Below are positions 3,784 through 51,590 of a DNA stretch of 64,000 bases, piece by piece (positions within the stretch are counted from its first letter, which is position 1; every line of letters starts with the position of its first letter). Source of the DNA: a virus (lineage: Duplodnaviria; Caudoviricetes). Where the stretch lies: the IMG/VR virus record IMGVR_UViG_3300050034_000334; one strand, given 5' to 3'. The notes under the pieces were generated by a model that was not told where the DNA came from, searched no databases, and saw only the letters and a program-made list of their open reading frames with translations. Position numbers and translations under genes: made by a program.

Positions 3784-4314
3784 TCAATAGAACAGGTACT
3801 TCTTCCACTTTTCCATGCCGGCACCCATAGAACGAATCAGGTTCCGGTTGGTGTGAATGGTCAATGGACGAGGGTAGCGAATCAGTTTCATGTCCTTGAT
3901 ATCGCTCAGATCCCTGTCGCCCTTCTTCTGGTTGCAAGCCTGACAAGCCGTGACCAGGTTCTCCCAGCAGTTCCTTCCACCCTTGGACTTCGGTACAACG
4001 TGGTCCCAGGTGAGATTCTTTGCTGAGAACTGAACACCGCAGTACTGGCAGGTGTAACCGTCGCGAAGGTAGATGTTCCGTCTGCTCAACTCCTGCTGAC
4101 GGTGTGGCACCTTCCGGTACTTCACCAGCCTGACTACGCAAGGAAGAAAGAATCCTGGACGAACCAAGAGGTCATACTCTTCCTCAGACTTGGCAACTCC
4201 CTTGATTACCATGCACAGTGCCCGCTGAGCACTCGCATAGCGCAGCGGCTCGTAACTGGCATTCAGTACGAGAACCGGAGTCGACTTGATGAGAGTGTTG
4301 GTTGCGGACAACAT
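3784..4314 (-). CDS. HNH endonuclease (McrA-like)
   Basis: VLVLNASYEPL start; RDGYTCQYCG...TWDHVVPKSKGG...WENLVTACQACNQKK; RBS AAGGAAA. Confidence 0.92.
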   Translation of the reverse strand: MLSATNTLIKSTPVLVLNASYEPLRYASAQRALCMVIKGVAKSEEEYDLLVRPGFFLPCVVRLVKYRKVPHRQQELSRRNIYLRDGYTCQYCGVQFSAKNLTWDHVVPKSKGGRNCWENLVTACQACNQKKGDRDLSDIKDMKLIRYPRPLTIHTNRNLIRSMGAGMEKWKKYLFY

Positions 4315-4374
4315 GGTGGTTTCCTTTCTTGAAAAATGGTGGAGGATCGGTCCGGAATGACTTCACCCCCAAGT

Positions 4375-5001
4375 TCAGGCTGCCGACTTGATAGAGTCTA
4401 AAATTCTCACACATCTGGTCAAGTACCTGCTTCCTGAAGAATCACTCAATCCGACTTTTCTTAATGCTTGAGAAACAGTTTCAGACGTTCTTAGAGCTTC
4501 AAGCAACTGTTCATCTGAAATTCTTCCTTCGCTACTTCTACCCACTTTGTTTCCGCAATAGGTGGGCAACTGACTGTCACAATTGGGACAAATACCTCTG
4601 AAGTTACTGCGAGAATTGTTGGATCGCACACCATCTATGTGATCTAGCCGAAGAGATATGGGTTTTCCATTCCACTCGTCAATCCCACAGATTAAGCACT
4701 TTCCTCCTTGTTCCCTTACAACCCTTTCCTTCTTACTGCCATACCCTAGATCTTCAAAGGGAGTAGCAGCTGATCTGGCGAGTATCTTGGCAGCCCGTTT
4801 CTTTATCGCCTCTGCTGACTGAGAATTTTCTCGAAAGGTGACGTACTTTTCATGATGTTCGGAGTACGCCTTCCTGCTCTTCTCACTCCTGCTCCGATTT
4901 ACCTCCGGAGTCCAGGTCCTTGAATGACTACATTTGGAAGAGCAGAAATTTCCTTCTCCGTATGAGCCATCATGTTCCTTACCACACTTCTTGCAGATCA
5001 T
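4375..5001 (-). CDS. HNH homing-type endonuclease with N-terminal Zn finger
   Basis: CKKC..HDGSYG.G.FCS..C start; CLICG...LRLDHIDG...N.R.ICPNCDSQ. Confidence 0.9.
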   Translation of the reverse strand: MICKKCGKEHDGSYGEGNFCSSKCSHSRTWTPEVNRSRSEKSRKAYSEHHEKYVTFRENSQSAEAIKKRAAKILARSAATPFEDLGYGSKKERVVREQGGKCLICGIDEWNGKPISLRLDHIDGVRSNNSRSNFRGICPNCDSQLPTYCGNKVGRSSEGRISDEQLLEALRTSETVSQALRKVGLSDSSGSRYLTRCVRILDSIKSAA

Positions 5002-5006
5002 TCTAA

Positions 5007-5031
5007 GGGACTCCTTATACTAAAGAATCCC
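5007..5031 (-). promoter_or_regulatory. Hairpin occluding the RBS of the HNH gene
   Basis: GGGATTCTTTA-GTA-TAAGGAGTCCC; AAGGAG lies in the 3' arm, 9 nt before the ATG at 5001. Confidence 0.55.
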
Positions 5032-5042
5032 CTAGTTCAAAT

Positions 5043-5120
5043 TGGTCGCAGTGAAGGGATTTGAACCCCCGACATCTTTCTTATGAGGAAAGCGTTCTCA
5101 CCAGGCTGAACTACACTGCG
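5043..5120 (-). tRNA. tRNA(CAT), probably elongator Met
   Basis: CGCAGTG...CTTTC-CTCATAA-GAAAG...CACTGCG-A-CCA; lacks initiator features; Met versus Ile2 is tentative. Confidence 0.9.
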
Positions 5121-5155
5121 ATTTATTCTTCGAACTACACTGCGATTTATTCTTC
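5108..5155. repeat. Exact 24-bp tandem duplication
   Basis: GAACTACACTGCGATTTATTCTTC twice (5108-5131, 5132-5155); includes the first 13 nt of the tRNA. Confidence 0.95.
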
Positions 5156-5490
5156 GTCATTTCCGTTCATCAAGTTTCTCCTGGTGGCATTCCAAACACT
5201 TCTGCTTGAGAGGCCACTCGTTGTTACACGTCGTGACCTCTGTTGAGTTGCATGAAGGACAGTGAATCGAGGCCTTATCCAGCCATGCGAGCAGTTCCTG
5301 AAACTTCCTGTCGTCCTGCATATTCGGCCTTGATGTACTCAACTTCCTTGCTGTTGCAACTCTCGAGCTTCCGCCCGACCTTCCAATCCTTCTTGCGCTG
5401 CTCGATGACAAACTGAGTCCAAGTGTAAGAAGACGAGTAACTCGACTTCTCCTCGTAGCAGCGGAACCAAAGACCGTTGAAGTTCAAATA

Positions 5491-5766
5491 CTATCCGTCA
5501 TACCACGAACGAGGGACCTCCCCACCTGGGAGACTTACCTGCAGTTCTTGACAGATGAACCTTGCAACATCTTCCGGATGGACTTCTCCGTCGCTCGTCT
5601 TCTTCCAGCGACCCCGGTCGATGTTGTCTTGTGACAAACCCATCAACTCACTCAAATCCTTGTGATGCATCCGACCATCCGGAAATCTCACGAACAAGTC
5701 GGCCTTGCCAATCTTGAAGAGGAACGTCACTCCTCGAACTACGATCCTACGCATGCGGGACTTCAT
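5491..5766 (-). CDS. Hypothetical protein
   Basis: ORF with an RBS, co-oriented with the array. Confidence 0.6.
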   Translation of the reverse strand: MKSRMRRIVVRGVTFLFKIGKADLFVRFPDGRMHHKDLSELMGLSQDNIDRGRWKKTSDGEVHPEDVARFICQELQVSLPGGEVPRSWYDG

Positions 5767-5937
5767 GAGGACCTTTCAGTGTCTTTTCCATCCTGGAGAA
5801 GCACCCTTCGAGTTGAATCAACGCCACGACACCAACTACAGCCAGACTGACAAACATCCCCACTAAACATCCGAACAGAAAGGCAAGATGCACCAGAGCG
5901 GAAATCTCATCAGGGTTCATGCCATTCTGATACTGCG

Positions 5938-6129
5938 TTTCGCTTCTCCAGCGAACTTTTACCTGCTGCGAGAGAGAGACGGACGGTTGTCGATACGTTT
6001 CAACCCACGCTCAAAAGAGCGACATTTGATCGAGGCCAGGTGCCGGTTGACAATCCACCACGTGCCTCTTCCCAGGATAGACGCGCCTCTCCGATCAGGA
6101 CTGTTCCGACCACCGGAGACTACCCTAGA
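5938..6129 (-). ncRNA. Candidate structured ncRNA
   Basis: Series of hairpins: TCTAGGGTAG/CTATCCTGGG, TCTCCG/CGGAGA, GAGGC/GCCTC, CGCTC-TTTT-GAGCG, GGTTG/CAACC, TTCGC/GCGAA. Confidence 0.45.
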
Positions 6130-6137
6130 CTAAACTT

Positions 6138-6545
6138 TCACCACTCGAAGTCCTTTGCAAGATGAACATTCTTCACCTGCATATTCTTCGTCGGAGTAAA
6201 TCTAAGTGTCACAGTTCCGCCTCCTTGAAATTGTTGGATCGGTAACCAGTAGCACTTTTCTGTAGCGGGCAAGTAAGCAACTACCACATCAATCTCTTCA
6301 GACGTGTACTTCTTCTTGTATCCGCTATTTCGGCATTCAGCCGATAGACCCACTTCAACAGAATCCTTCGTCAAGCTACAGCTGCAATACTTCACTTGAA
6401 CCCTGAGAAGTTCCTTTCCGTTGTCGACCACCAAGTCGTACCTGGCGTCTACAGAAGGAACGCTCACAATCCATCCCAACTCGGTGGCTCGGAGCATGAC
6501 TTTCAGCTTTCCGATCTCACCCTTTTGATGAGTGCTTGCTAGCAT
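6138..6545 (-). CDS. PD-(D/E)XK endonuclease (group I intron-associated family), free-standing
   Basis: KGEIG...RYDLVVD...LRVQVKY...Y...EIDVVVAYLP...CY. Confidence 0.88.
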   Translation of the reverse strand: MLASTHQKGEIGKLKVMLRATELGWIVSVPSVDARYDLVVDNGKELLRVQVKYCSCSLTKDSVEVGLSAECRNSGYKKKYTSEEIDVVVAYLPATEKCYWLPIQQFQGGGTVTLRFTPTKNMQVKNVHLAKDFEW

Positions 6546-6567
6546 ATCTCATCAATACTCAAAACTT

Positions 6568-6643
6568 TGGTGCGAGCGGAGGGGATCGAACCCCCGACGT
6601 CCCGGTTAAGAGCCGGTTACTCTACCAACTGAGTTACGCTCGC
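6568..6643 (-). tRNA. tRNA-Lys(CTT)
   Basis: GCGAGCG...ACCGG-CTCTTAA-CCGGG...CGCTCGC-A-CCA. Confidence 0.96.
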
Positions 6644-6744
6644 ACATCTACAAAAAGGCTCTCCGGGGAGGTGGGCCATCCCTCCATACACTCCTCGCGA
6701 AAGAGAGTGTGTCTTGCCACTATGAAACGACCGGAAACTTACAA

Positions 6745-6932
6745 ATTCAACGCCGGTGCTCTATCCAGGCTGAGCTACCACCAAGCGAATGGACCGTTCC
6801 GCCGACCTTGATTCCCCTCTAGAAAAGGAATCCTGGGACTCTTAGGGCATGGTCACTTGCTCTGTCTAAACGGGTGGGTTGGATTCGGACCAACGACCAC
6901 CGGCTGCTTGTTGGGCGGAATGATCACACCCG
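6745..6932 (-). ncRNA. Permuted tRNA-like element (T arm before D arm) or tandem tRNA remnants
   Basis: GCCGGT-GGTC-GTTGG-TCCGAAT-CCAAC-CCACCCG, then ~85 nt, then TTGGTGG-TA-GCTC-AGCCTGGATA-GAGC-ACCGGC. Confidence 0.5.
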
Positions 6933-6938
6933 AATCTT

Positions 6939-7013
6939 TGGCTCCTGAGGAGGGATTCGAACCCACAACCATTCGGTTAACAGCCGAACGCTCTGCCGTT
7001 GAGCTACCCAGGA
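6939..7013 (-). tRNA. tRNA-Asn(GTT)
   Basis: TCCTGGG...TTCGG-CTGTTAA-CCGAA...CTCAGGA-G-CCA. Confidence 0.97.
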
Positions 7014-7020
7014 ACACTTG

Positions 7021-7215
7021 TTATACTGCAACTTCCTCAATCTCGATCTGAACCTTCTTGCTGCTCATCACTTCGTCAGCAACACCGAAGGCAACCTCAT
7101 AATCCTCAAATCTGGTTGCCTCGTAGCGATATCCAAACCTCAAAGTGCGGGTGATCGCAGCATCGTCTGAGATGACATAGTTCGATGTATTCGGTACTCT
7201 CAAGATGTGCTGCAT
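7021..7215 (-). CDS. Small hypothetical protein
   Basis: ORF with RBS GGAGTAGAGGG between tRNAs. Confidence 0.55.
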   Translation of the reverse strand: MQHILRVPNTSNYVISDDAAITRTLRFGYRYEATRFEDYEVAFGVADEVMSSKKVQIEIEEVAV

Positions 7216-7261
7216 GACCTTACCCTCTACTCCGATTTATGAGATCGGGTACTGCTGAATT

Positions 7262-7337
7262 TGGGGAGTCTAGAGGGATTCGAACCCTCGACTACTGGTG
7301 CCACAGACCAGCGTTCTACCGCTGAACTACAGACTCC
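7262..7337 (-). tRNA. tRNA-His(GTG)
   Basis: G-1 and C73 present; CTGGT-CTGTGGC-ACCAG; CCA end. Confidence 0.96.
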
Positions 7338-7348
7338 ATGAAATTGTT

Positions 7349-7422
7349 TGGCTGCCTCTGTAGGATTCGAACCTACATATCCTGGTCCAGAGCCAAGTGT
7401 CCTGCCATTGAACGAAAAGGCA
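7349..7422 (-). tRNA. tRNA-Gln(CTG)
   Basis: TGCCTTT...CTTGG-CTCTGGA-CCAGG...AGAGGCA-G-CCA. Confidence 0.96.
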
Positions 7423-7442
7423 ACATGTGAAACCGAACTTGT

Positions 7443-7522
7443 TGGGCAGGAACGGTGGGAATCCATTGACCTCCTGGTTGGAGCCAGAAGGCGTGGAAAC
7501 CCATTCTTCCGCTGAACTGCCC
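7443..7522 (-). pseudogene. Degenerate tRNA-like element (Trp-like loop)
   Basis: GGGCAG/CTGCCC ends; D-like TTC-AGCGGAA-GAA; CTGG-CTCCAA-CCAG arm; T loop and CCA defective. Confidence 0.5.
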
Positions 7523-7524
7523 GA

Positions 7525-7692
7525 CCGGGCAATGACTTCTAAGCTACATTCGCCGAAGCGAATGCTGGTCAACCTTCTCACCAGATCCCCGCCGTTGAAG
7601 GCGGTGCTTTGTTCGGACTCGCCACGGAGGTTCCAGCCTCATGGGTCTGTCCTGGTCTAGTCGCACTGGCCCCTGGAAGGTCCATTGCCCGG
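7525..7692 (-). ncRNA. Candidate multibranched ncRNA (~170 nt)
   Basis: Closing helix CCGGGCAATG/CATTGCCCGG; internal CATTCGC-TTCG-GCGAATG (cUUCGg), CCGCC/GGCGG, GAGG/CCTC. Confidence 0.55.
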
Positions 7693-7925
7693 AAACTTTA
7701 TTGCACGAACGAAAAGTAGACTAAGAGGCGGTGCAAACTACTTGATGAACAATCCGTCAATCACGCTCTTGGCTTTGTCTTCCGTTCTGACATAGTTCCG
7801 GACCACGTAGGTCTCGGCTATGATGCGAAAGCCGCCATCTCGTAAAGGATGAATCGTATACCCGCGATATATTGTGTCTTCCATACGAATCTCTACTGGA
7901 AAACCCAGCATATCGGTTAATCTTT

Positions 7926-8000
7926 TGGCGGGAAATAGAGGAATCGAACCCCTGAGTTCTGATTTGGAGGCAGACAGTTTACCAACTAGCTTAATTTCCC
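7926..8000 (-). tRNA. tRNA-Trp(CCA)
   Basis: GGGAAAT...CTCCAAA loop...ATTTCCC-G-CCA. Confidence 0.92.
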
Positions 8001-8040
8001 GTTGAATCCAGACTTTCGGAACCATTACTGGAGGTTCCAA

Positions 8041-8571
8041 TTGAAATCTTGCGAAAATTGCACTACTCTTCACGATGGTACTTATGGTTCTGGTCGTTTC
8101 TGTTCAATTGGCTGTGCTAGAGGCTTTGCCACCAAAGCATCTAGGTTAAAAATCAACCAAGAAGTGAGTGCTAAACTGAAGGGTAAACCTGTTCGTAATC
8201 GTAGTCCTCATAGTAAAGAAGTGAAGGAAAAGATACGCAGAAGCATCAATCAAGGATTTCAAATCAAATTCCAAAAGTGGATAGATGACTGGCTTTCCGG
8301 AAAGATACATCCCACAAGAGCCAACTATAGAGTAGTGCACAAAGCATTAGCCATTTTAAGAGGAGATAAGTGTGAACAATGCGGTTGGAAAGAGGTTCAT
8401 CCGAAAACTGGACTTATCCCAGTGCAACTTCATCATATTGACGGTGATGGAGATAACAATTCACCAGATAATGTGAAACTGTTGTGTCCAAGCTGTCATT
8501 CACTCACTCTCAATTTCATGGCTTTGAACTACTACAACAAATTGTCAAAGATCACGCCGTTGTTCGCCTGA
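8041..8571 (+). CDS. HNH homing-type endonuclease, antisense to the tRNA array (start uncertain; track ORF from 8002)
   Basis: CENC..HDGTYGSGRFCS..C start as in 4375..5001; CEQCG...QLHHIDGDGDNNSPDNVKLLCPSCH. Confidence 0.88.
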   Translation: MKSCENCTTLHDGTYGSGRFCSIGCARGFATKASRLKINQEVSAKLKGKPVRNRSPHSKEVKEKIRRSINQGFQIKFQKWIDDWLSGKIHPTRANYRVVHKALAILRGDKCEQCGWKEVHPKTGLIPVQLHHIDGDGDNNSPDNVKLLCPSCHSLTLNFMALNYYNKLSKITPLFA

Positions 8572-8770: not shown

Positions 8771-8789
8771 ACTCTCAAAATCCATCCCT

Positions 8790-8825
8790 AAAAACCAAAT
8801 CCCGCCAGCTTGTGGGCTTGGCGGG
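8790..8825 (-). terminator. Intrinsic terminator of attenuator A, directly upstream of tRNA array A
   Basis: CCCGCCA-AGCCCACAAGC-TGGCGGG followed by ATTTGGTTTTT. Confidence 0.85.
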
Positions 8826-8852
8826 TGGAAACTCTGAAAATACCAGGTAGGA

Positions 8853-8948
8853 TTACGCACTACCTCCAGAATCCAGACCGCCGATGGCATGCTGATTTCG
8901 CTGCCACTGCTTATGCTGTCTCATCGAATTGGTCTGTATCTGTTTCAC
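8853..8948 (-). CDS. Leader peptide of attenuator A: MKQIQTNSMRQHKQWQRNQHAIGGLDSGGSA (31 aa, GTG start)
   Basis: RBS AAGGGAG 4 nt before GTG; 17 of codons 2-20 are K/Q/I/N/M/R/H/W; 3' part pairs with the terminator 5' arm. Confidence 0.85.
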   Translation of the reverse strand: MKQIQTNSMRQHKQWQRNQHAIGGLDSGGSA

Positions 8949-9010
8949 AGTACTCCCTTGACAAATTTCATAATACTACGGTTTCCTCTGATCGGGGAAA
9001 CTATTTTTGC

Positions 9011-9134
9011 CAGTGATTACGGAATCCTTTGTAACAAAACACTCAACCATGAAGGATTCGAACCTTCGCTATGAATGCACCCAATCATGACACTGTTCAG
9101 CACCAGGGGTCTACAAAGGATTCCGTAATCACTG
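9011..9134 (-). ncRNA. Promoter-proximal hairpin RNA with a perfect 23-bp stem enclosing a tRNA T-arm remnant
   Basis: CAGTGATTACGGAATCCTTTGTA (9011-9033) and its exact reverse complement (9112-9134); loop contains GAAGG-TTCGAAT-CCTTC. Confidence 0.6.
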
Positions 9135-9144
9135 TACATTACAC

Positions 9145-9172: not shown

Positions 9173-9385
9173 ATGATGCCTTTAGACAGATTCAGGGAGG
9201 TACTCGCGTCTTTTATCTCCCAGCCCGGTGGCCACCAGACAATTAGAAGATTGGCCTGACGCTTTCGCTCCCTGTCACTGCTCGAGTCTATCCTGTGTAC
9301 TTTAGGAAGCAAGGCTCTGTTGGCTCCACCGCGCAATGGGTGATGAAGACCTGCCCCTCACTCACTTGTCAACTCAATGGATTCC

Positions 9386-9413
9386 TCTACGGTGGTCTGT
9401 GGAGGAACGGTTA
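9386..9413 (-). promoter_or_regulatory. Phage promoter motif TAACCG-N16-CGTAGA
   Basis: Exact motif match. Confidence 0.7.
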
Positions 9414-9426
9414 GGCGGTCACTGGC

Positions 9427-10500
9427 TCATCGGTCAGTTGGGCATCGGCCATCGTTCAGACGAAGAGTGAACTGAGCGATATGAACTGGCTCATTCTCTT
9501 TGATGGCCTTCTGCCAGTAGAACTGATACTGACTGGCGTAACCTGCCAGCTGGGCATCCTCCAGTGTGAACTTCACAAAGGGGATGAGATTTTTGCCTCC
9601 CTCGATGCCGAACAAACGGGGACCAAGAGCCTTCCTGATTCTGGCATAGGTGTAGCTGATGTAGATGCCAGGACTGGTGACGTTGCACCAGTTCTCAATG
9701 TCGAGGATGGTGTTCTTCCCGACTGCAGCTGAGTTGAACTGCCAGGCCAGGACGTTCCATGCCAACTGAGGAGAGACTACAGCGTTCTCGCTGGGCTTGA
9801 TCACCTTGCTAACTTCTTCGAACAGTTCCTCAGCCGCCACAAGGTTCGCTTCTGCTCCCTCCTTCTCCCGGGAGCGCATCTTCTTGTAGTCCTTGCCCAG
9901 AACCAGACCCATCGGCTTGTGCTGATCTCCCAATCCCAGGCTCTTGAAATGTTCGTGTTGCTCATACCCTGTCAGATATAAGTCCGGAGCACAGAATTCT
10001 ACGAAGCTCAGATCGTGTGCTGCATAGGTTGGACGACCGTCAGAGCGGTATATCACGACACCGTTGAACATCTTACAGCCTTCGTACTCTCCGGTGCCGG
10101 GAGTCAGTGTGTATCCTGTGGGCGGCTTCATGTCCCTATCAAATAAGATGAATGGCTGATATCCGGAGATGTGACACCAGTTGTTGAATGCCGTGTACGC
10201 TCCCTCTTTCTCGCCAATGGTGACTCCCAGCATTGCGACTGGCTTGGCTTTGGTGATATTTGCCAGCGCGGCGGCGATTGCCAGGTTCTTGATGTGCCCG
10301 ACATGAAGGTCTTTGTTGAGGTTAGGTGAGAATCCATCCAGAGTTATCTCGGATGGTTTGGCTTTCTCAGGCCATTCCCAGACGGTTGGCGTTACATGGT
10401 AGTTGTGGTAAATACCCACAGATTCATAACGAAATCCCTTGAGATCGAGTGGAGTGAGTGAAGTGACACCAACTCCCACTTGTTCAGGTATAGGATGCAT
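9427..10500 (-). CDS. argS: Arginyl-tRNA synthetase, reduced and C-terminally truncated
   Basis: SPNLNKDLHVGH (HIGH), YRSDGRPTYAAHDL, KKMRSRE, PGIYISYTYARI, start of DALR domain (NEPVHIAQFTLRL) then an abrupt end. Confidence 0.85.
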   Translation of the reverse strand: MHPIPEQVGVGVTSLTPLDLKGFRYESVGIYHNYHVTPTVWEWPEKAKPSEITLDGFSPNLNKDLHVGHIKNLAIAAALANITKAKPVAMLGVTIGEKEGAYTAFNNWCHISGYQPFILFDRDMKPPTGYTLTPGTGEYEGCKMFNGVVIYRSDGRPTYAAHDLSFVEFCAPDLYLTGYEQHEHFKSLGLGDQHKPMGLVLGKDYKKMRSREKEGAEANLVAAEELFEEVSKVIKPSENAVVSPQLAWNVLAWQFNSAAVGKNTILDIENWCNVTSPGIYISYTYARIRKALGPRLFGIEGGKNLIPFVKFTLEDAQLAGYASQYQFYWQKAIKENEPVHIAQFTLRLNDGRCPTDR

Positions 10501-10554
10501 GAGATCTTCCTCTCCAACCACATTCTACCAGAAGATGCCGGAATAAGGCTAGTT

Positions 10555-23861: not shown

Positions 23862-23862
23862 A

Positions 23863-23891
23863 CAAACAAAAACCACTCCCGGAGGAGTGGC
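23863..23891 (-). terminator. Intrinsic terminator of attenuator B, directly upstream of tRNA array B
   Basis: GCCACTCC-TCCG-GGAGTGGT followed by TTTTGTTTG. Confidence 0.9.
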
Positions 23892-23918
23892 TCTTGTGAA
23901 CTTGGTTTTGAGGTCGTC

Positions 23919-24011
23919 TTATATGCCTCTCCACCTTGCCACAGAGCCACTCGGCAAGCTAAGGTAATAGCTTGACAGTGACGGGGACGAAGATAGAGAC
24001 AGTAAACGCAT
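23919..24011 (-). CDS. Leader peptide of attenuator B: MRLLSLSSSPSLSSYYLSLPSGSVARWRGI (30 aa)
   Basis: RBS GAGG 9 nt before ATG; uses all six Ser codons, five different Leu codons and both Tyr codons; GAGTGGCTCTGTG pairs with the terminator 5' arm. Confidence 0.9.
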   Translation of the reverse strand: MRLLSLSSSPSLSSYYLSLPSGSVARWRGI

Positions 24012-24039
24012 GACGAAATTCCTCACTCTTACATGATAC

Positions 24040-24067
24040 TCTACTGAGCGGAAAAGTAAAGCGGTTA
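24040..24067 (-). promoter_or_regulatory. Phage promoter TAACCG-N16-AGTAGA driving leader B and tRNA array B
   Basis: Exact motif match 28 nt upstream of the leader ATG. Confidence 0.8.
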
Positions 24068-24073
24068 GGAAAA

Positions 24074-24316
24074 CTATTTTCCCGTGACGACGGATTTCTC
24101 TTTACGAGTGGCACTATTGGCAATGTCTTCATACTCGAATTCTTGGAGTTTGTGAAGGTTCTTCATCTGAAAACGAACACCCTGGGCTGCCGTGATCTCC
24201 TCATATCCTGTGGGAGTAGCTTCACCACGATAGATCTGGAGGAGAGGTCCTCCCTCAACAGGAAAAGCAATCAGGGGGAAATCTCTCATGTAGGCAGTTA
24301 GCTGATCGTCTTCCAC
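24074..24316 (-). CDS. Hypothetical protein
   Basis: ORF from the track. Confidence 0.45.
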   Translation of the reverse strand: MEDDQLTAYMRDFPLIAFPVEGGPLLQIYRGEATPTGYEEITAAQGVRFQMKNLHKLQEFEYEDIANSATRKEKSVVTGK

Positions 24317-47772: not shown

Positions 47773-48129
47773 TCACTTAATACTCCTCTTTTCTCCAAGA
47801 TTGCTGGTGTAGATGGCACCCTTCTCGGCTCCTGAATTGCTCTTGCTAGACTCACGACCTGACTCGTCTTCACGAGCCTCGATGATCGAACTGAGCGGTC
47901 CTGCACCCTGTCTACGCTGGGCACGGTTGAAGGCCATAGCTCCCCGGCGATCGGAAGTGATCTCGATCTCAACAAGGGAGGAGTTCTTGGAGGGATAAGC
48001 GACCTTGGCCATGAGCAGCGGAACATCTTCGCCGGCACAGTGAATGCAGTCGTTGATGTTGCCCGGCTTGGTGGGAGAAAGGATGAATTCCTCACCACAG
48101 GTGCGGCATACTCGTTTGGGCTGTTTCAT
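47773..48129 (-). CDS. Small Zn-ribbon hypothetical protein
   Basis: CRTCG...CIHC. Confidence 0.6.
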   Translation of the reverse strand: MKQPKRVCRTCGEEFILSPTKPGNINDCIHCAGEDVPLLMAKVAYPSKNSSLVEIEITSDRRGAMAFNRAQRRQGAGPLSSIIEAREDESGRESSKSNSGAEKGAIYTSNLGEKRSIK

Positions 48130-48378
48130 TTCTTGTACTCAAGGACTTCTTCAAAAGACTTGGTGCTTCCACGAACCATCTCGCCGTTGATCTTGAGAGT
48201 GTAGAACTTGAAAGTGGCCTTGTGCTCAAGGATCTGTGGAGCGAGTTTCTCATTGACCGTTATGCATTTGCCAGGGTCTTGTTCCGTGACAACTGCTGTG
48301 GGGCCATACTTCGCTTTGGCAATGGCGTTGGCTTCTGTAATGTTCATGCTTCCCTCCGATCCTCTCTACTGAATTTTT

Positions 48379-49083: not shown

Positions 49084-49765
49084 GATGTCTGAACGACTTT
49101 TTCAAGTCGAACCCTGCTTTCAAGATTTTCTGAGTATTGCTGACAGTCACAGGAGGGTCGGCATCAGGCACCGGCTTCAAGGTGTTGCCCACGAAATAGG
49201 CCAGTTCTTGATACATCTGCGTGGCTGGAACCAAAGCTGGCATCCCAATGATCTTGAGGATGGGGCATTGACCATTGATACGAATCTTGGTCTTGAACTT
49301 GCCCCAGCGATGACTGACATCACTGATTACATATACCGGATGACCAATCTTGCGAGACAACTCGATCAGGAACTGGTTCTCCTTGGCAATCTCCACTCCG
49401 TATCCCTTGCGCCAGAAGTGACGCTTCTTGTCTTCTTCCTCGATGAGCTCAAGAGGAATCACACGATAGGAGTTGACGTCTTCCTCGAAGAATCCGGCCT
49501 TCTTCTGGATGATGTAGGCTTTGCCGGCGATGATCAGGTACTTCTGGCGGAGTTCCTGGTTGCGCATGTTGAAGTAATCCGGAGCCGTTAGTGGGCAGTC
49601 TCCGTCGATCTCGACAGTCAAATGAGTTTCGTGGACGCCTCCGAAGTTGGGGTCTCTGTCGAGAGGAGAGATTCTACCGCGAACATATACGATGGTGGGG
49701 TCACCCCCACCATACTGGTTCGCCACGAAATCATAGTAGTCCTTGAAAGGCGACTTGATGACCAT
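49076..49765 (-). CDS. Conserved hypothetical phage protein
   Basis: IKSPFKDYYD...; ...PA..MYQEL..F.G...K...GFD.K.SFRH. Confidence 0.7.
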   Translation of the reverse strand: MVIKSPFKDYYDFVANQYGGGDPTIVYVRGRISPLDRDPNFGGVHETHLTVEIDGDCPLTAPDYFNMRNQELRQKYLIIAGKAYIIQKKAGFFEEDVNSYRVIPLELIEEEDKKRHFWRKGYGVEIAKENQFLIELSRKIGHPVYVISDVSHRWGKFKTKIRINGQCPILKIIGMPALVPATQMYQELAYFVGNTLKPVPDADPPVTVSNTQKILKAGFDLKKSFRHRD

Positions 49766-49767
49766 GT

Positions 49768-49923
49768 TTACTCCGCGACGTTGTGTCCGGGCACCTTGTT
49801 GGACCCTGGGCATTTCTCGTCGATCACTTCACCATGATACCGGCTGGCATGCTCCACTACCTTGCCGTCAGACATTCTGACCTGAGCACCGCAATGCGAG
49901 CATTCACCCTTTTCAATTCTCAT
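49768..49923 (-). CDS. Small Zn-binding peptide (MRIEKGECSHCG...CPGS), probably leaderless
   Basis: ATG 7 nt after the promoter at 49931-49958; not in the ORF track. Confidence 0.55.
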   Translation of the reverse strand: MRIEKGECSHCGAQVRMSDGKVVEHASRYHGEVIDEKCPGSNKVPGHNVAE

Positions 49924-51197: not shown

Positions 51198-51590
51198 TCA
51201 CACACCTTTCACTGCTTCTGTCAGAGCATGATACTTCGCCACGAAACGACGATACTCCTCTCGAGAGATGTACCTCATGCTCGTGAAGCAAGGATATCCA
51301 TTGATCGAGCGACTGAGAGCATCCGCCATCGGAGCGTAGATCATGCCAACATCCTTCCTCATCTCGTCCAGCTGCTTCTGTTCCATGAATCCCAAAGGCA
51401 GGAAGATGATTGTCATCAGGTTGGCATCGTGCTTATGGACGTGATCACTGGTGAAGATCTCGCCGCGAAAGGCCTGCAGCGCGAGGGCCTTAATCTCCTC
51501 GTCTGTCATCACTTTCTTCTTCGGCTTCCTCGTCGGCTTCAAGGGGAGATTCCCCTTCAAGTTCGTCGTCGAACTCGCTTCTGTAGTCAT
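51198..51590 (-). CDS. Hypothetical protein
   Basis: ORF with RBS AAGGATG. Confidence 0.6.
   Translation of the reverse strand: MTTEASSTTNLKGNLPLKPTRKPKKKVMTDEEIKALALQAFRGEIFTSDHVHKHDANLMTIIFLPLGFMEQKQLDEMRKDVGMIYAPMADALSRSINGYPCFTSMRYISREEYRRFVAKYHALTEAVKGV

Follow-up and report, generated by a model that had tools for sequence, protein, structure and literature searches.

A putative leader-peptide attenuator upstream of a tRNA gene array in a large phage genome

Transcription attenuation by a translating ribosome is known in enterobacteria from trpL, hisL, leuL, thrL and pheL and from the leaders of ilvGMEDA and ilvBN. These systems share a short translated leader with clustered regulatory codons and a pair of mutually exclusive antiterminator and terminator hairpins, between which the choice is made by the position of the ribosome. 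The ilv and thr leaders are multivalent, several amino acids being sensed by one leader. In E. coli, the pheM leader attenuates pheST (phenylalanyl-tRNA synthetase) and responds to the supply of charged tRNA, so that leader-peptide attenuation also acts on a component of the translation apparatus. T-box riboswitches are another tRNA-responsive terminator/antiterminator switch placed on translation-related genes; they bind uncharged tRNA directly and are untranslated.

By analogy, the locus described here, leader A of a large phage, would work like the trp, his and ilv attenuators but would differ from them in cargo and logic. The enterobacterial attenuators control biosynthetic enzymes, whereas the putative cargo of leader A consists of tRNA genes, and the quantity sensed (decoding capacity) would be supplied by the operon itself. 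Eight amino acids and at least 10 isoacceptors would be sampled at the level of synonymous codons, and the system is phage-encoded, with at least four units in one genome dividing the genetic code. Where pheM senses one amino acid and the product is a synthetase protein, the product here would be the tRNAs themselves. Unlike a T-box, leader A is an ORF and has no T-box match. It shows no sequence homology to the enterobacterial leaders.

Why phages carry tRNA genes and how these genes are expressed has been under debate for decades; compensation for codon usage, degradation of host tRNAs and evasion of anticodon nucleases are among the explanations put forward (e.g., PMC10264068). A survey of huge phages does not mention leader-peptide attenuation of tRNA genes (PMC7162821), and a full-text search of incomplete coverage returned no published description of it, in phages or otherwise. 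Here, we suggest that positions 8790-9008 (minus strand) of the window, i.e., of the whole 64,000-nt stretch of DNA that was analysed, are likely to be a ribosome-mediated transcription attenuator gating an array of 11 tRNA genes (array A).

The window corresponds to positions 15308-79307, read on the reverse strand, of an IMG/VR virus record of 187 kb. The completeness of the record was estimated by CheckV as ~60%, so the phage genome is probably larger than 300 kb. The stretch is present in DNA and RNA libraries from peat and wetland. Based on ARAGORN and Rfam annotations, the window includes 18 tRNA genes in two arrays, all on the minus strand, and four arrays with a total of 31 tRNAs are present in the whole 187-kb record. 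Array A (8770 to 2831, minus strand) consists of Arg-ACG, CAT (Ile2-like), Trp, Gln-CTG, His, Asn, Lys-CTT, CAT, Lys-TTT, Arg-CCT and Arg-TCT, in this order, and spans 6 kb with homing-endonuclease ORFs interspersed on both strands. Array B (23861 to 22118, minus strand) contains Tyr, five Leu and Ser-GCT. Outside the window are array C (Val, two Gly, Asp, three Ala and two Glu) and array D (three Pro and Phe). The gene just upstream of leader A encodes a truncated arginyl-tRNA-synthetase-like (ArgRS-like) protein, many relatives of which occur on very large viral contigs. An Rfam scan of window positions 1-26000 at E ≤ 1 found tRNAs only, with no T-box and no known leader family, and a blastn search of the region against cultured phages returned only generic tRNA matches of ≤83% identity. 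Positions 9185-9460 of the window were no more structured than shuffled sequences (z = 0.49).

Leader ORF A runs on the minus strand from a GTG at 8948 to 8853 (31 codons plus TAA, the latter at 8855-8853). A Shine-Dalgarno-like AAGGGAG, read directly in the sequence, is located 4 nt before the GTG (8953..8959, minus strand). An earlier note on this DNA had spelled out the codons of the ORF and had claimed that 17 of codons 2-20 can be read by tRNAs of the array. The minus strand at 8948-8853 reads exactly as given there, and the count of cognate codons was reproduced, with ACC and TCG as the sole exceptions. The putative regulatory run (codons 2-20, 8945-8889, minus strand) encodes K Q I Q T N S M R Q H K Q W Q R N Q H. 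Its six Gln codons are all CAG, as the note had stated, and the sole Gln tRNA in the 187 kb is CTG; AAA, AAG, AGA, CGA, ATA, ATG, TGG, CAT and AAT each have a reader in array A. As to the claim that ATA needs an Ile2 tRNA, the best matches of the first CAT tRNA of the array are genes annotated as tRNA-Ile in E. coli records, which is consistent with this tRNA being of the Ile2 type and reading the ATA codon. In total, 10 of the 11 tRNAs of array A are represented by codons of leader A, Arg-CCT being the sole absentee, and no codon at positions 21-31 of the ORF is cognate to the array.

Cognate codons were counted using standard wobble rules, in which G34 reads C/U, C34 reads G, U34 reads A/G, and A34, as inosine, reads U/C/A. 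The CAT anticodon was counted as reading ATG or ATA, and array A thus reads 15 codons. The match is specific to the leader frame: 17/19 codons are cognate there, whereas the two remaining sense frames yield 6/19 and 1/19 and the antisense frames 2-4 of 18. The 15 array-readable codons make up 23.9% of the codons in the long ORFs of the phage (p = 0.239), which gives a binomial tail of 2.8e-9 for 17/19 at the phage's own codon usage. As an empirical null that allows for the choice of frame and window, we took the best window of the best ORF in each of 3000 random 330-nt genome segments. The score observed for leader A was reached in 0.17% of these segments. Since the maximum of the null equals the observed score, those draws are probably segments overlapping leader A itself, and the empirical p is ~0.002 or lower. 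The codon match of leader A is correct and is far beyond chance. Translation of the ORF is inferred, there being no Ribo-seq, Term-seq or genetic data.

Upstream of the leader, a conserved motif AAAATAGT-N20-GTAGTATTAT was found at 8970..9008 (minus strand). The composite pattern of AAAATAGT, a 15-32 nt spacer and GTAG[T/AG]AT[T/C]AT occurs three times in the 187-kb record, in each case just upstream of one of the leaders A, B and C (the latter two are described below), and nowhere else in the record. A related box, GGCAAA...TATCAT, precedes leader D at the same 35-nt spacing. A scan for sigma-70 consensus promoters upstream of leader A gave no match. The motif is probably a dedicated promoter of the leader/tRNA transcript; this is inferred, as no transcription start has been mapped. 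A scan of viral contigs with the motif returned 106 matches, which were mostly due to chance, and only the one in a near-identical strain (L021) was relevant.

Contigs from four independent peat/wetland metatranscriptome libraries cover leader A, and those of three of the four also cover terminator A and the tRNAs. One example extends from 9098 to 8333 (767 nt, one mismatch) and runs through the putative promoter from upstream. Neither the strand nor the ends nor the level of an RNA can be read from such contigs, and they may derive in part from carried-over DNA, so they show only that leader A joined to tRNAs is present in RNA libraries. One further RNA-library contig covers 8785-8947; at 8947 it directly abuts adapter sequence, and its opposite end is ~5 nt beyond the U-run. 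It could represent a discrete short RNA, although it is a single observation.

Between the leader and the tRNAs lies an intrinsic terminator (terminator A, 8790..8825, minus strand), with a 5′ arm at 8825-8816, a 3′ arm at 8810-8801 and a U-run at 8800-8790. Its stem has 9 bp with one bulge (-16.8 kcal/mol including flanks), the arm CCCGCCA (8825-8819) pairing with TGGCGGG (8807-8801), and the U-run, AUUUGGUUUUU, is interrupted. A simple consensus terminator scanner did not call terminator A because the stem has a bulge. The terminator ends 20 nt before tRNA-Arg, which leaves no space for a further promoter.

The earlier note had proposed that the distal codons of the leader pair with the region downstream of the stop codon and so sequester the 5′ arm of the terminator. 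This pairing exists in the sequence: GGCGG (8882-8878) and CCGCC (8824-8820) can form the base of the putative antiterminator (8820..8882, minus strand), a long hairpin that comprises codons 23-31, the stop codon and ~30 nt downstream. The proposed sequestration also follows, as the GGCGG/CCGCC helix excludes the terminator arm CCCGCCA (8825-8819). The two structures were folded with a ribosome mask, in which a 30-nt stretch was kept single-stranded around each possible A-site codon. In transcripts ending before the 3′ arm of the terminator, the predicted probability of the antiterminator base helix is 0.93-0.99 when the ribosome occupies codons 1-14 or 17-18, and 0 when it occupies codons 19-29. 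In the full transcript, the terminator is predicted to be the more stable fold: its advantage over the antiterminator is 0.5-3.5 kcal/mol for a ribosome at codon 6, 10 or 20, ~7-8 kcal/mol at codon 14 or 18, and 7-9 kcal/mol if the ribosome has reached the stop codon or is lacking. Equilibrium folding of leader A under the mask gave no switch, P(terminator) being ~0.9 in all modelled states. In the ribosome-free minimum free energy fold, the 3′ side of the antiterminator is taken up by the Shine-Dalgarno site and the first codons, so that the terminator is present; in this state, the terminator fold is favoured by 9.1 kcal/mol. With regard to the refuting condition set in the note, the two folds are mutually exclusive, with the caveat that at equilibrium the antiterminator is predicted to be weaker by 0.5-9 kcal/mol. 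Occupancy of the 5′ arm of the terminator at A was no higher than in shuffled leaders (0.64 vs. 0.60), and this shuffle control singled out 8 of the 13 modules tested, A not being among them. Since the terminator wins at equilibrium, any regulation at A must be kinetic or partial. The marginal strength predicted for antiterminator A and the lack of experimental evidence are the weak points of the proposal.

To find relatives of the locus, the ArgRS-like family was used. A search with the single protein as a query returned no loci, and a search with an alignment returned 19, most of them without nearby arrays. Only one diverged homologue of leader A came to light; it is located on L108, an ENA contig of 134 kb that encodes an ArgRS-like protein 55% identical to that of the window. 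The L108 gene is located inside a tRNA array that contains Trp, His (two), Arg-CCG, Arg-ACG, Trp, Asn (two), CAT and Gln-CTG (two), then Lys-CTT, Arg-TCT, Arg-CCT and Lys-TTT (two), i.e., it covers the same eight amino acids as array A. Its leader is a called 33-codon gene (L108:6272-6373), which ends 61 nt upstream of the first tRNA. The peptide aligns with that of leader A in K-Q, N-x-M-R, H, Q-W-Q, R-N-Q and H-A-x-G, the differences between the two leaders are whole-codon indels, and 15 of codons 3-20 are cognate to the L108 array itself. A Shine-Dalgarno sequence, AAGGAA, lies 5 nt before the ATG, the start region being conserved with leader A, and the upstream box reads AAAATAGT-N20-GGTACTATAA. 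Codons and tRNAs have changed in concert: CGG and tRNA-Arg-CCG are present in L108 only, while ATA and the second, Ile2-like CAT tRNA are present in the window only.

The terminator of L108 differs in sequence from that of A (CCCUAGCC/GGCUAGGG followed by a U-run), and the segment equivalent to GGCGG is complementary to its own terminator arm (GCUA-GGGUC). The alignment with a homologous locus that the earlier note had suggested as a check thus shows that the terminator and antiterminator arms changed together. Under the ribosome mask, the P(terminator) predicted for L108 drops to 0.08-0.38 when the ribosome occupies codons 7-14 or 16, as against 0.99 for a ribosome at the stop codon or none at all. 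The leaders of L108, B and C switch cleanly in this model, whereas leader A does not. The ArgRS-like contigs L107, L110 and L147-L150 carried no homologue of leader A. A nucleotide pattern derived from leader A was also run against viral and metagenome contigs; all of its matches were attributed to chance and had no tRNA downstream.

All four tRNA arrays of the 187-kb record have their own matched leader, and three of the four have a terminator. Module B (23862..24081, minus strand) includes the motif (24081-24033), a leader ORF (24011-23919) and a terminator (23891-23872) with a U-run. Its ORF of 30 codons is rich in Leu, Ser and Tyr and uses five different Leu codons for five Leu tRNAs; a 7-bp GC-rich hairpin follows, the U-run of which ends 1 nt before tRNA-Tyr. 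An identical leader B was found in the strain L021, whose array additionally has Ser-CGA and Ser-TGA, and these account for the TCN codons of the leader. Leader C is a short ORF rich in V, E, G, A and D upstream of array C. Leader D, with three different Pro codons and two Phe codons, is located upstream of array D and has no recognisable intrinsic terminator. An internal ORF before tRNA-Trp (score of 4.2) was judged to be due to chance; it has no terminator and is antisense to an HNH gene.

When the codons of each leader are counted against each array, the resulting matrix is diagonal: for leader A, 17 codons are cognate to array A and 2, 7 and 0 to arrays B, C and D, respectively; leader B has 11 for array B and 5, 4 and 2 for the other three; leader C has 15 for array C and 4, 4 and 1 for the other three. 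The empirical p values are 0.002 (A), 0.005 (B), 0.003 (C) and 0.015 (D), which by our own arithmetic give a Fisher-combined p of ~1e-6 for the four leaders. In ribosome-mask folding, leader B has a P(terminator) of 0.98 if no ribosome is present; the value drops to 0.01-0.25 when codons 7-15 are occupied and is 0.95-0.98 again for codons 17-29. For leader C, it is 0.94 without a ribosome, 0.00-0.06 at codons 1-11 and >0.9 at distal codons. In this model, leaders B and C are predicted to behave as classic attenuators.

To assess how common the design is, the tRNA regions of large phage records reached via the ArgRS-like family were surveyed. Array-matched leaders were frequent in the surveyed records, most being followed by a terminator, and matched leaders were found in at least six other large phage records, including that of the cultured Caulobacter phage phiCbK. 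For example, L134 has a run of alternating Leu/Ser codons before a Leu/Ser array, L145 has a Ser/Arg/Trp leader before a Ser/Arg/Trp array, and L121 has a leader rich in Thr, Ile, Arg, Asn and Met (17/17 codons) before an array of Thr, Asn, Thr, Arg, Arg, Ile and Met. A leader score of at least 6 was obtained for 10 of 112 tRNA-upstream regions, from more than seven phage records, with their own downstream tRNA set. With mismatched (non-overlapping) tRNA sets, it was obtained for 4 of 896 pairings, i.e., there is a 20-fold excess of own-set matches. The distances from the stop codon to the tRNA in the modules are mostly 51-82 nt, and 12 modules have a hairpin of -12 kcal/mol or stronger with a U-run, the end of which lies 6-28 nt upstream of the first tRNA. 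Five modules, including the L108 homologue of A, switch even at equilibrium, and the terminators of A, L134, L138, L140, L144, L145, L118 and L121:9558 never open in the equilibrium model.

In phiCbK, the annotated gp083 is a 45-aa product with a high content of S, L, K, P and A. Downstream of it come an annotated rho-independent terminator and tRNAs for Pro (two), Lys (two), Leu (three), Ala and Ser (two). Two further terminators are located directly before tRNAs in this genome; the annotated terminators have the record positions 48120-48166, 49745-49769 and 51465-51502. Attenuation or leaders are not mentioned in the phiCbK genome paper (PMC3556154). In the Klebsiella jumbo phage vB_KpM_FBKp24, a membrane-protein-like ORF precedes the tRNA cluster and no matched leader was found, so the design is not universal.

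Based on the elements above, we suggest the following pathway for the control of array A. Transcription would start at the dedicated promoter-like motif. A ribosome would load at the Shine-Dalgarno sequence and the GTG and translate the 31-codon leader, codons 2-20 of which would sample nearly every tRNA of the array. If decoding is fast, the ribosome would reach codons 19-31 and cover or melt the antiterminator; the terminator would then form, and the polymerase would stop 20 nt before tRNA-Arg. When any cognate aminoacyl-tRNA is scarce, the ribosome would stall within codons 2-18, the antiterminator would fold once transcribed and hold the 5′ arm of the terminator, and the polymerase would enter the tRNA genes. 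Without translation, the 5′ end of the RNA may pair with the 3′ side of the antiterminator, in which case the terminator would form. The outcome would be negative feedback, with each tRNA block made on demand. It is inferred that the motif acts as a promoter and that the ORF is translated; the same holds for the direction in which the logic runs at A and for any physiological trigger.

It is possible, though in our view unlikely, that the leader is translated and matched to its array while control at A does not proceed via antiterminator/terminator competition. The ribosome might instead act on RNA polymerase (by coupling or Rho access) or influence how the tRNA precursor is processed and how stable it is; alternatively, the hairpin might be an RNase site. 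The terminators that never open at equilibrium, in A and in several other modules, fit such a scheme, and so does leader D, which is matched in its Pro/Phe codons without a recognisable intrinsic terminator; the contig at 8785-8947 adds that discrete RNA ends may exist. However, a strong hairpin with a U-run stands 6-28 nt before the first tRNA in 12 modules, and the homologue of A is among the five modules that switch even at equilibrium. In the E. coli trp attenuator, the terminator is likewise more stable than the antiterminator, so the failure at equilibrium of A is not decisive.

The ORF might also be a chance one or an ordinary small gene, with the hairpin ending the upstream ArgRS-like operon and the tRNAs being made by read-through or from elsewhere. 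We strongly disfavour this explanation and consider it very improbable: it leaves the frame-specific codon match (3e-9), the four independent matched leaders in one genome, the conserved homologue with its codon/tRNA co-variation and the 20-fold own-set excess across phages without a cause, even though short ORFs are common, the promoter role is only inferred, RNA contigs enter from upstream and the FBKp24 tRNA cluster does without such a leader. Slighter still is the chance that the codon-like triplets are untranslated and bind tRNA anticodons directly as RNA, in the manner of a T-box. The region is indeed tRNA-matched and placed before a terminator, as T-box leaders are; against this, neither a T-box nor any other non-tRNA Rfam match was found in window 1-26000 at E ≤ 1, the triplets are kept in one frame between a Shine-Dalgarno/start codon and a stop codon, and the L108 homologue differs by whole-codon indels. 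To our knowledge, nineteen different specifier codons in a row would be without precedent. Leader-peptide attenuation of array A remains the preferred reading: at the level of sequence, all of its elements are present and the design is replicated, so that it can be called supported, with the reservation that antiterminator A is predicted to be at best marginally competitive in energy, while regulated read-through is inferred.

If leader A is such an attenuator, the tRNA supply of the phage would be feedback-controlled and on demand, which would favour a response to host tRNA loss or shortage as the role of these genes. The reach of leader-peptide attenuation would be widened beyond amino-acid metabolism to include non-coding cargo, and natural sensors for individual isoacceptors would become available. 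A broader reading, for and against which we see the case as evenly balanced, is that large phages split their tRNA genes into several regulons, each leader sampling the isoacceptors it controls codon by codon. These leaders may serve as a real-time read-out of failing host decoding, caused by codon-usage mismatch, host shut-off or tRNA-cleaving defence nucleases, and exactly those tRNAs would be replaced on demand. Should this reading be true, phages would have a widespread level of gene regulation and counter-defence that has so far gone unrecognised. The presence of the same architecture in the cultured phage phiCbK makes the idea testable at the bench.

Strain variation was seen around leader A, the 31-codon ORF upstream of tRNA array A. 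In contigs of three RNA libraries (peat or wetland metatranscriptomes), the non-cognate codon ACC of the leader reads GCC because of T>C at position 8933. Three libraries had one nucleotide inserted at 8776, within the spacer that separates the terminator from the first tRNA. The regulatory codons of leader A did not vary among the strains seen in these contigs. At the sister module, the near-identical strain L021 (IMGVR_UViG_3300036909_000104, 5306-7241) possesses a leader B identical to that of the window, but its array B has a different order of Leu tRNAs and includes two extra tRNAs, Ser-CGA and Ser-TGA, which are missing from the array B of the window. The tRNA content of this array thus changes faster than its leader does.

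It should be mentioned that array A is interrupted on both strands by homing-endonuclease-type ORFs (3784-8571). Three of them belong to the HNH type (8002-8571, plus strand; 4375-5001 and 3784-4314, minus strand), and one belongs to the PD-(D/E)XK type (6138-6545, minus strand). The 6 kb span of this 11-tRNA array is due to these ORFs.

Upstream of leader A, a gene at 9427-10521 (minus strand) encodes a truncated arginyl-tRNA-synthetase-like protein of 364 aa with a weak tRNA-synt_1d match; DALR_1 is present in its relatives. The family gave 257 database hits, many of them on contigs of 100-650 kb. In two phages, members of the family adjoin or sit within Arg-containing tRNA arrays. Between this gene and the promoter-like leader-A motif lies an inverted repeat with arms of 23-28 bp (9010-9138, minus strand; folding energy -57.8 kcal/mol, z = -7.1), and the approximately 80 nt enclosed by it include a canonical T-arm-like hairpin, GAAGG-UUCGAAU-CCUUC. 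Neither ARAGORN nor Rfam gave a call for this element. In three runs, RNA-library contigs begin within this element, at either 9098 or 9089. Three of the four RNA libraries contain separate contigs, of greater depth, that match the intergenic stretch 9193-9457. These contigs differ from the window by 3-9 mismatches plus indels and, at 9457, pass into a sequence that does not resemble it; the element thus also occurs in a relative, where its surroundings are different. Its degree of structure is not unusual (z = 0.49), and it had no Rfam match.

Array D (Pro, Phe, Pro, Pro; G000:C1:181311-181578), located in the same record outside the window, has two overlapping Phe- and Pro-rich candidate leaders, one of which overlaps a promoter-like box. 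No recognisable intrinsic terminator was found upstream of its first tRNA.

In two related huge-phage records, ARAGORN called tRNAs with the anticodon CTA (amber suppressor type), namely at loci L135 and L136 of G002 (IMGVR_UViG_3300028558_000016) and L146 of G005, a hint that TAG may be reassigned or suppressed in these phages.

In Caulobacter phage phiCbK (JX100813, 47000-53000), three annotated rho-independent terminators are located immediately 5′ of tRNA genes, each with a short ORF ahead. The clearest case is gp083 (45 aa; S-, L-, K-, P- and A-rich), followed downstream by tRNAs for Pro (two), Lys (two), Leu (three), Ala and Ser (two). With this layout of short ORF, terminator and tRNA genes, phiCbK offers a cultured model for the proposed ribosome-mediated attenuation.
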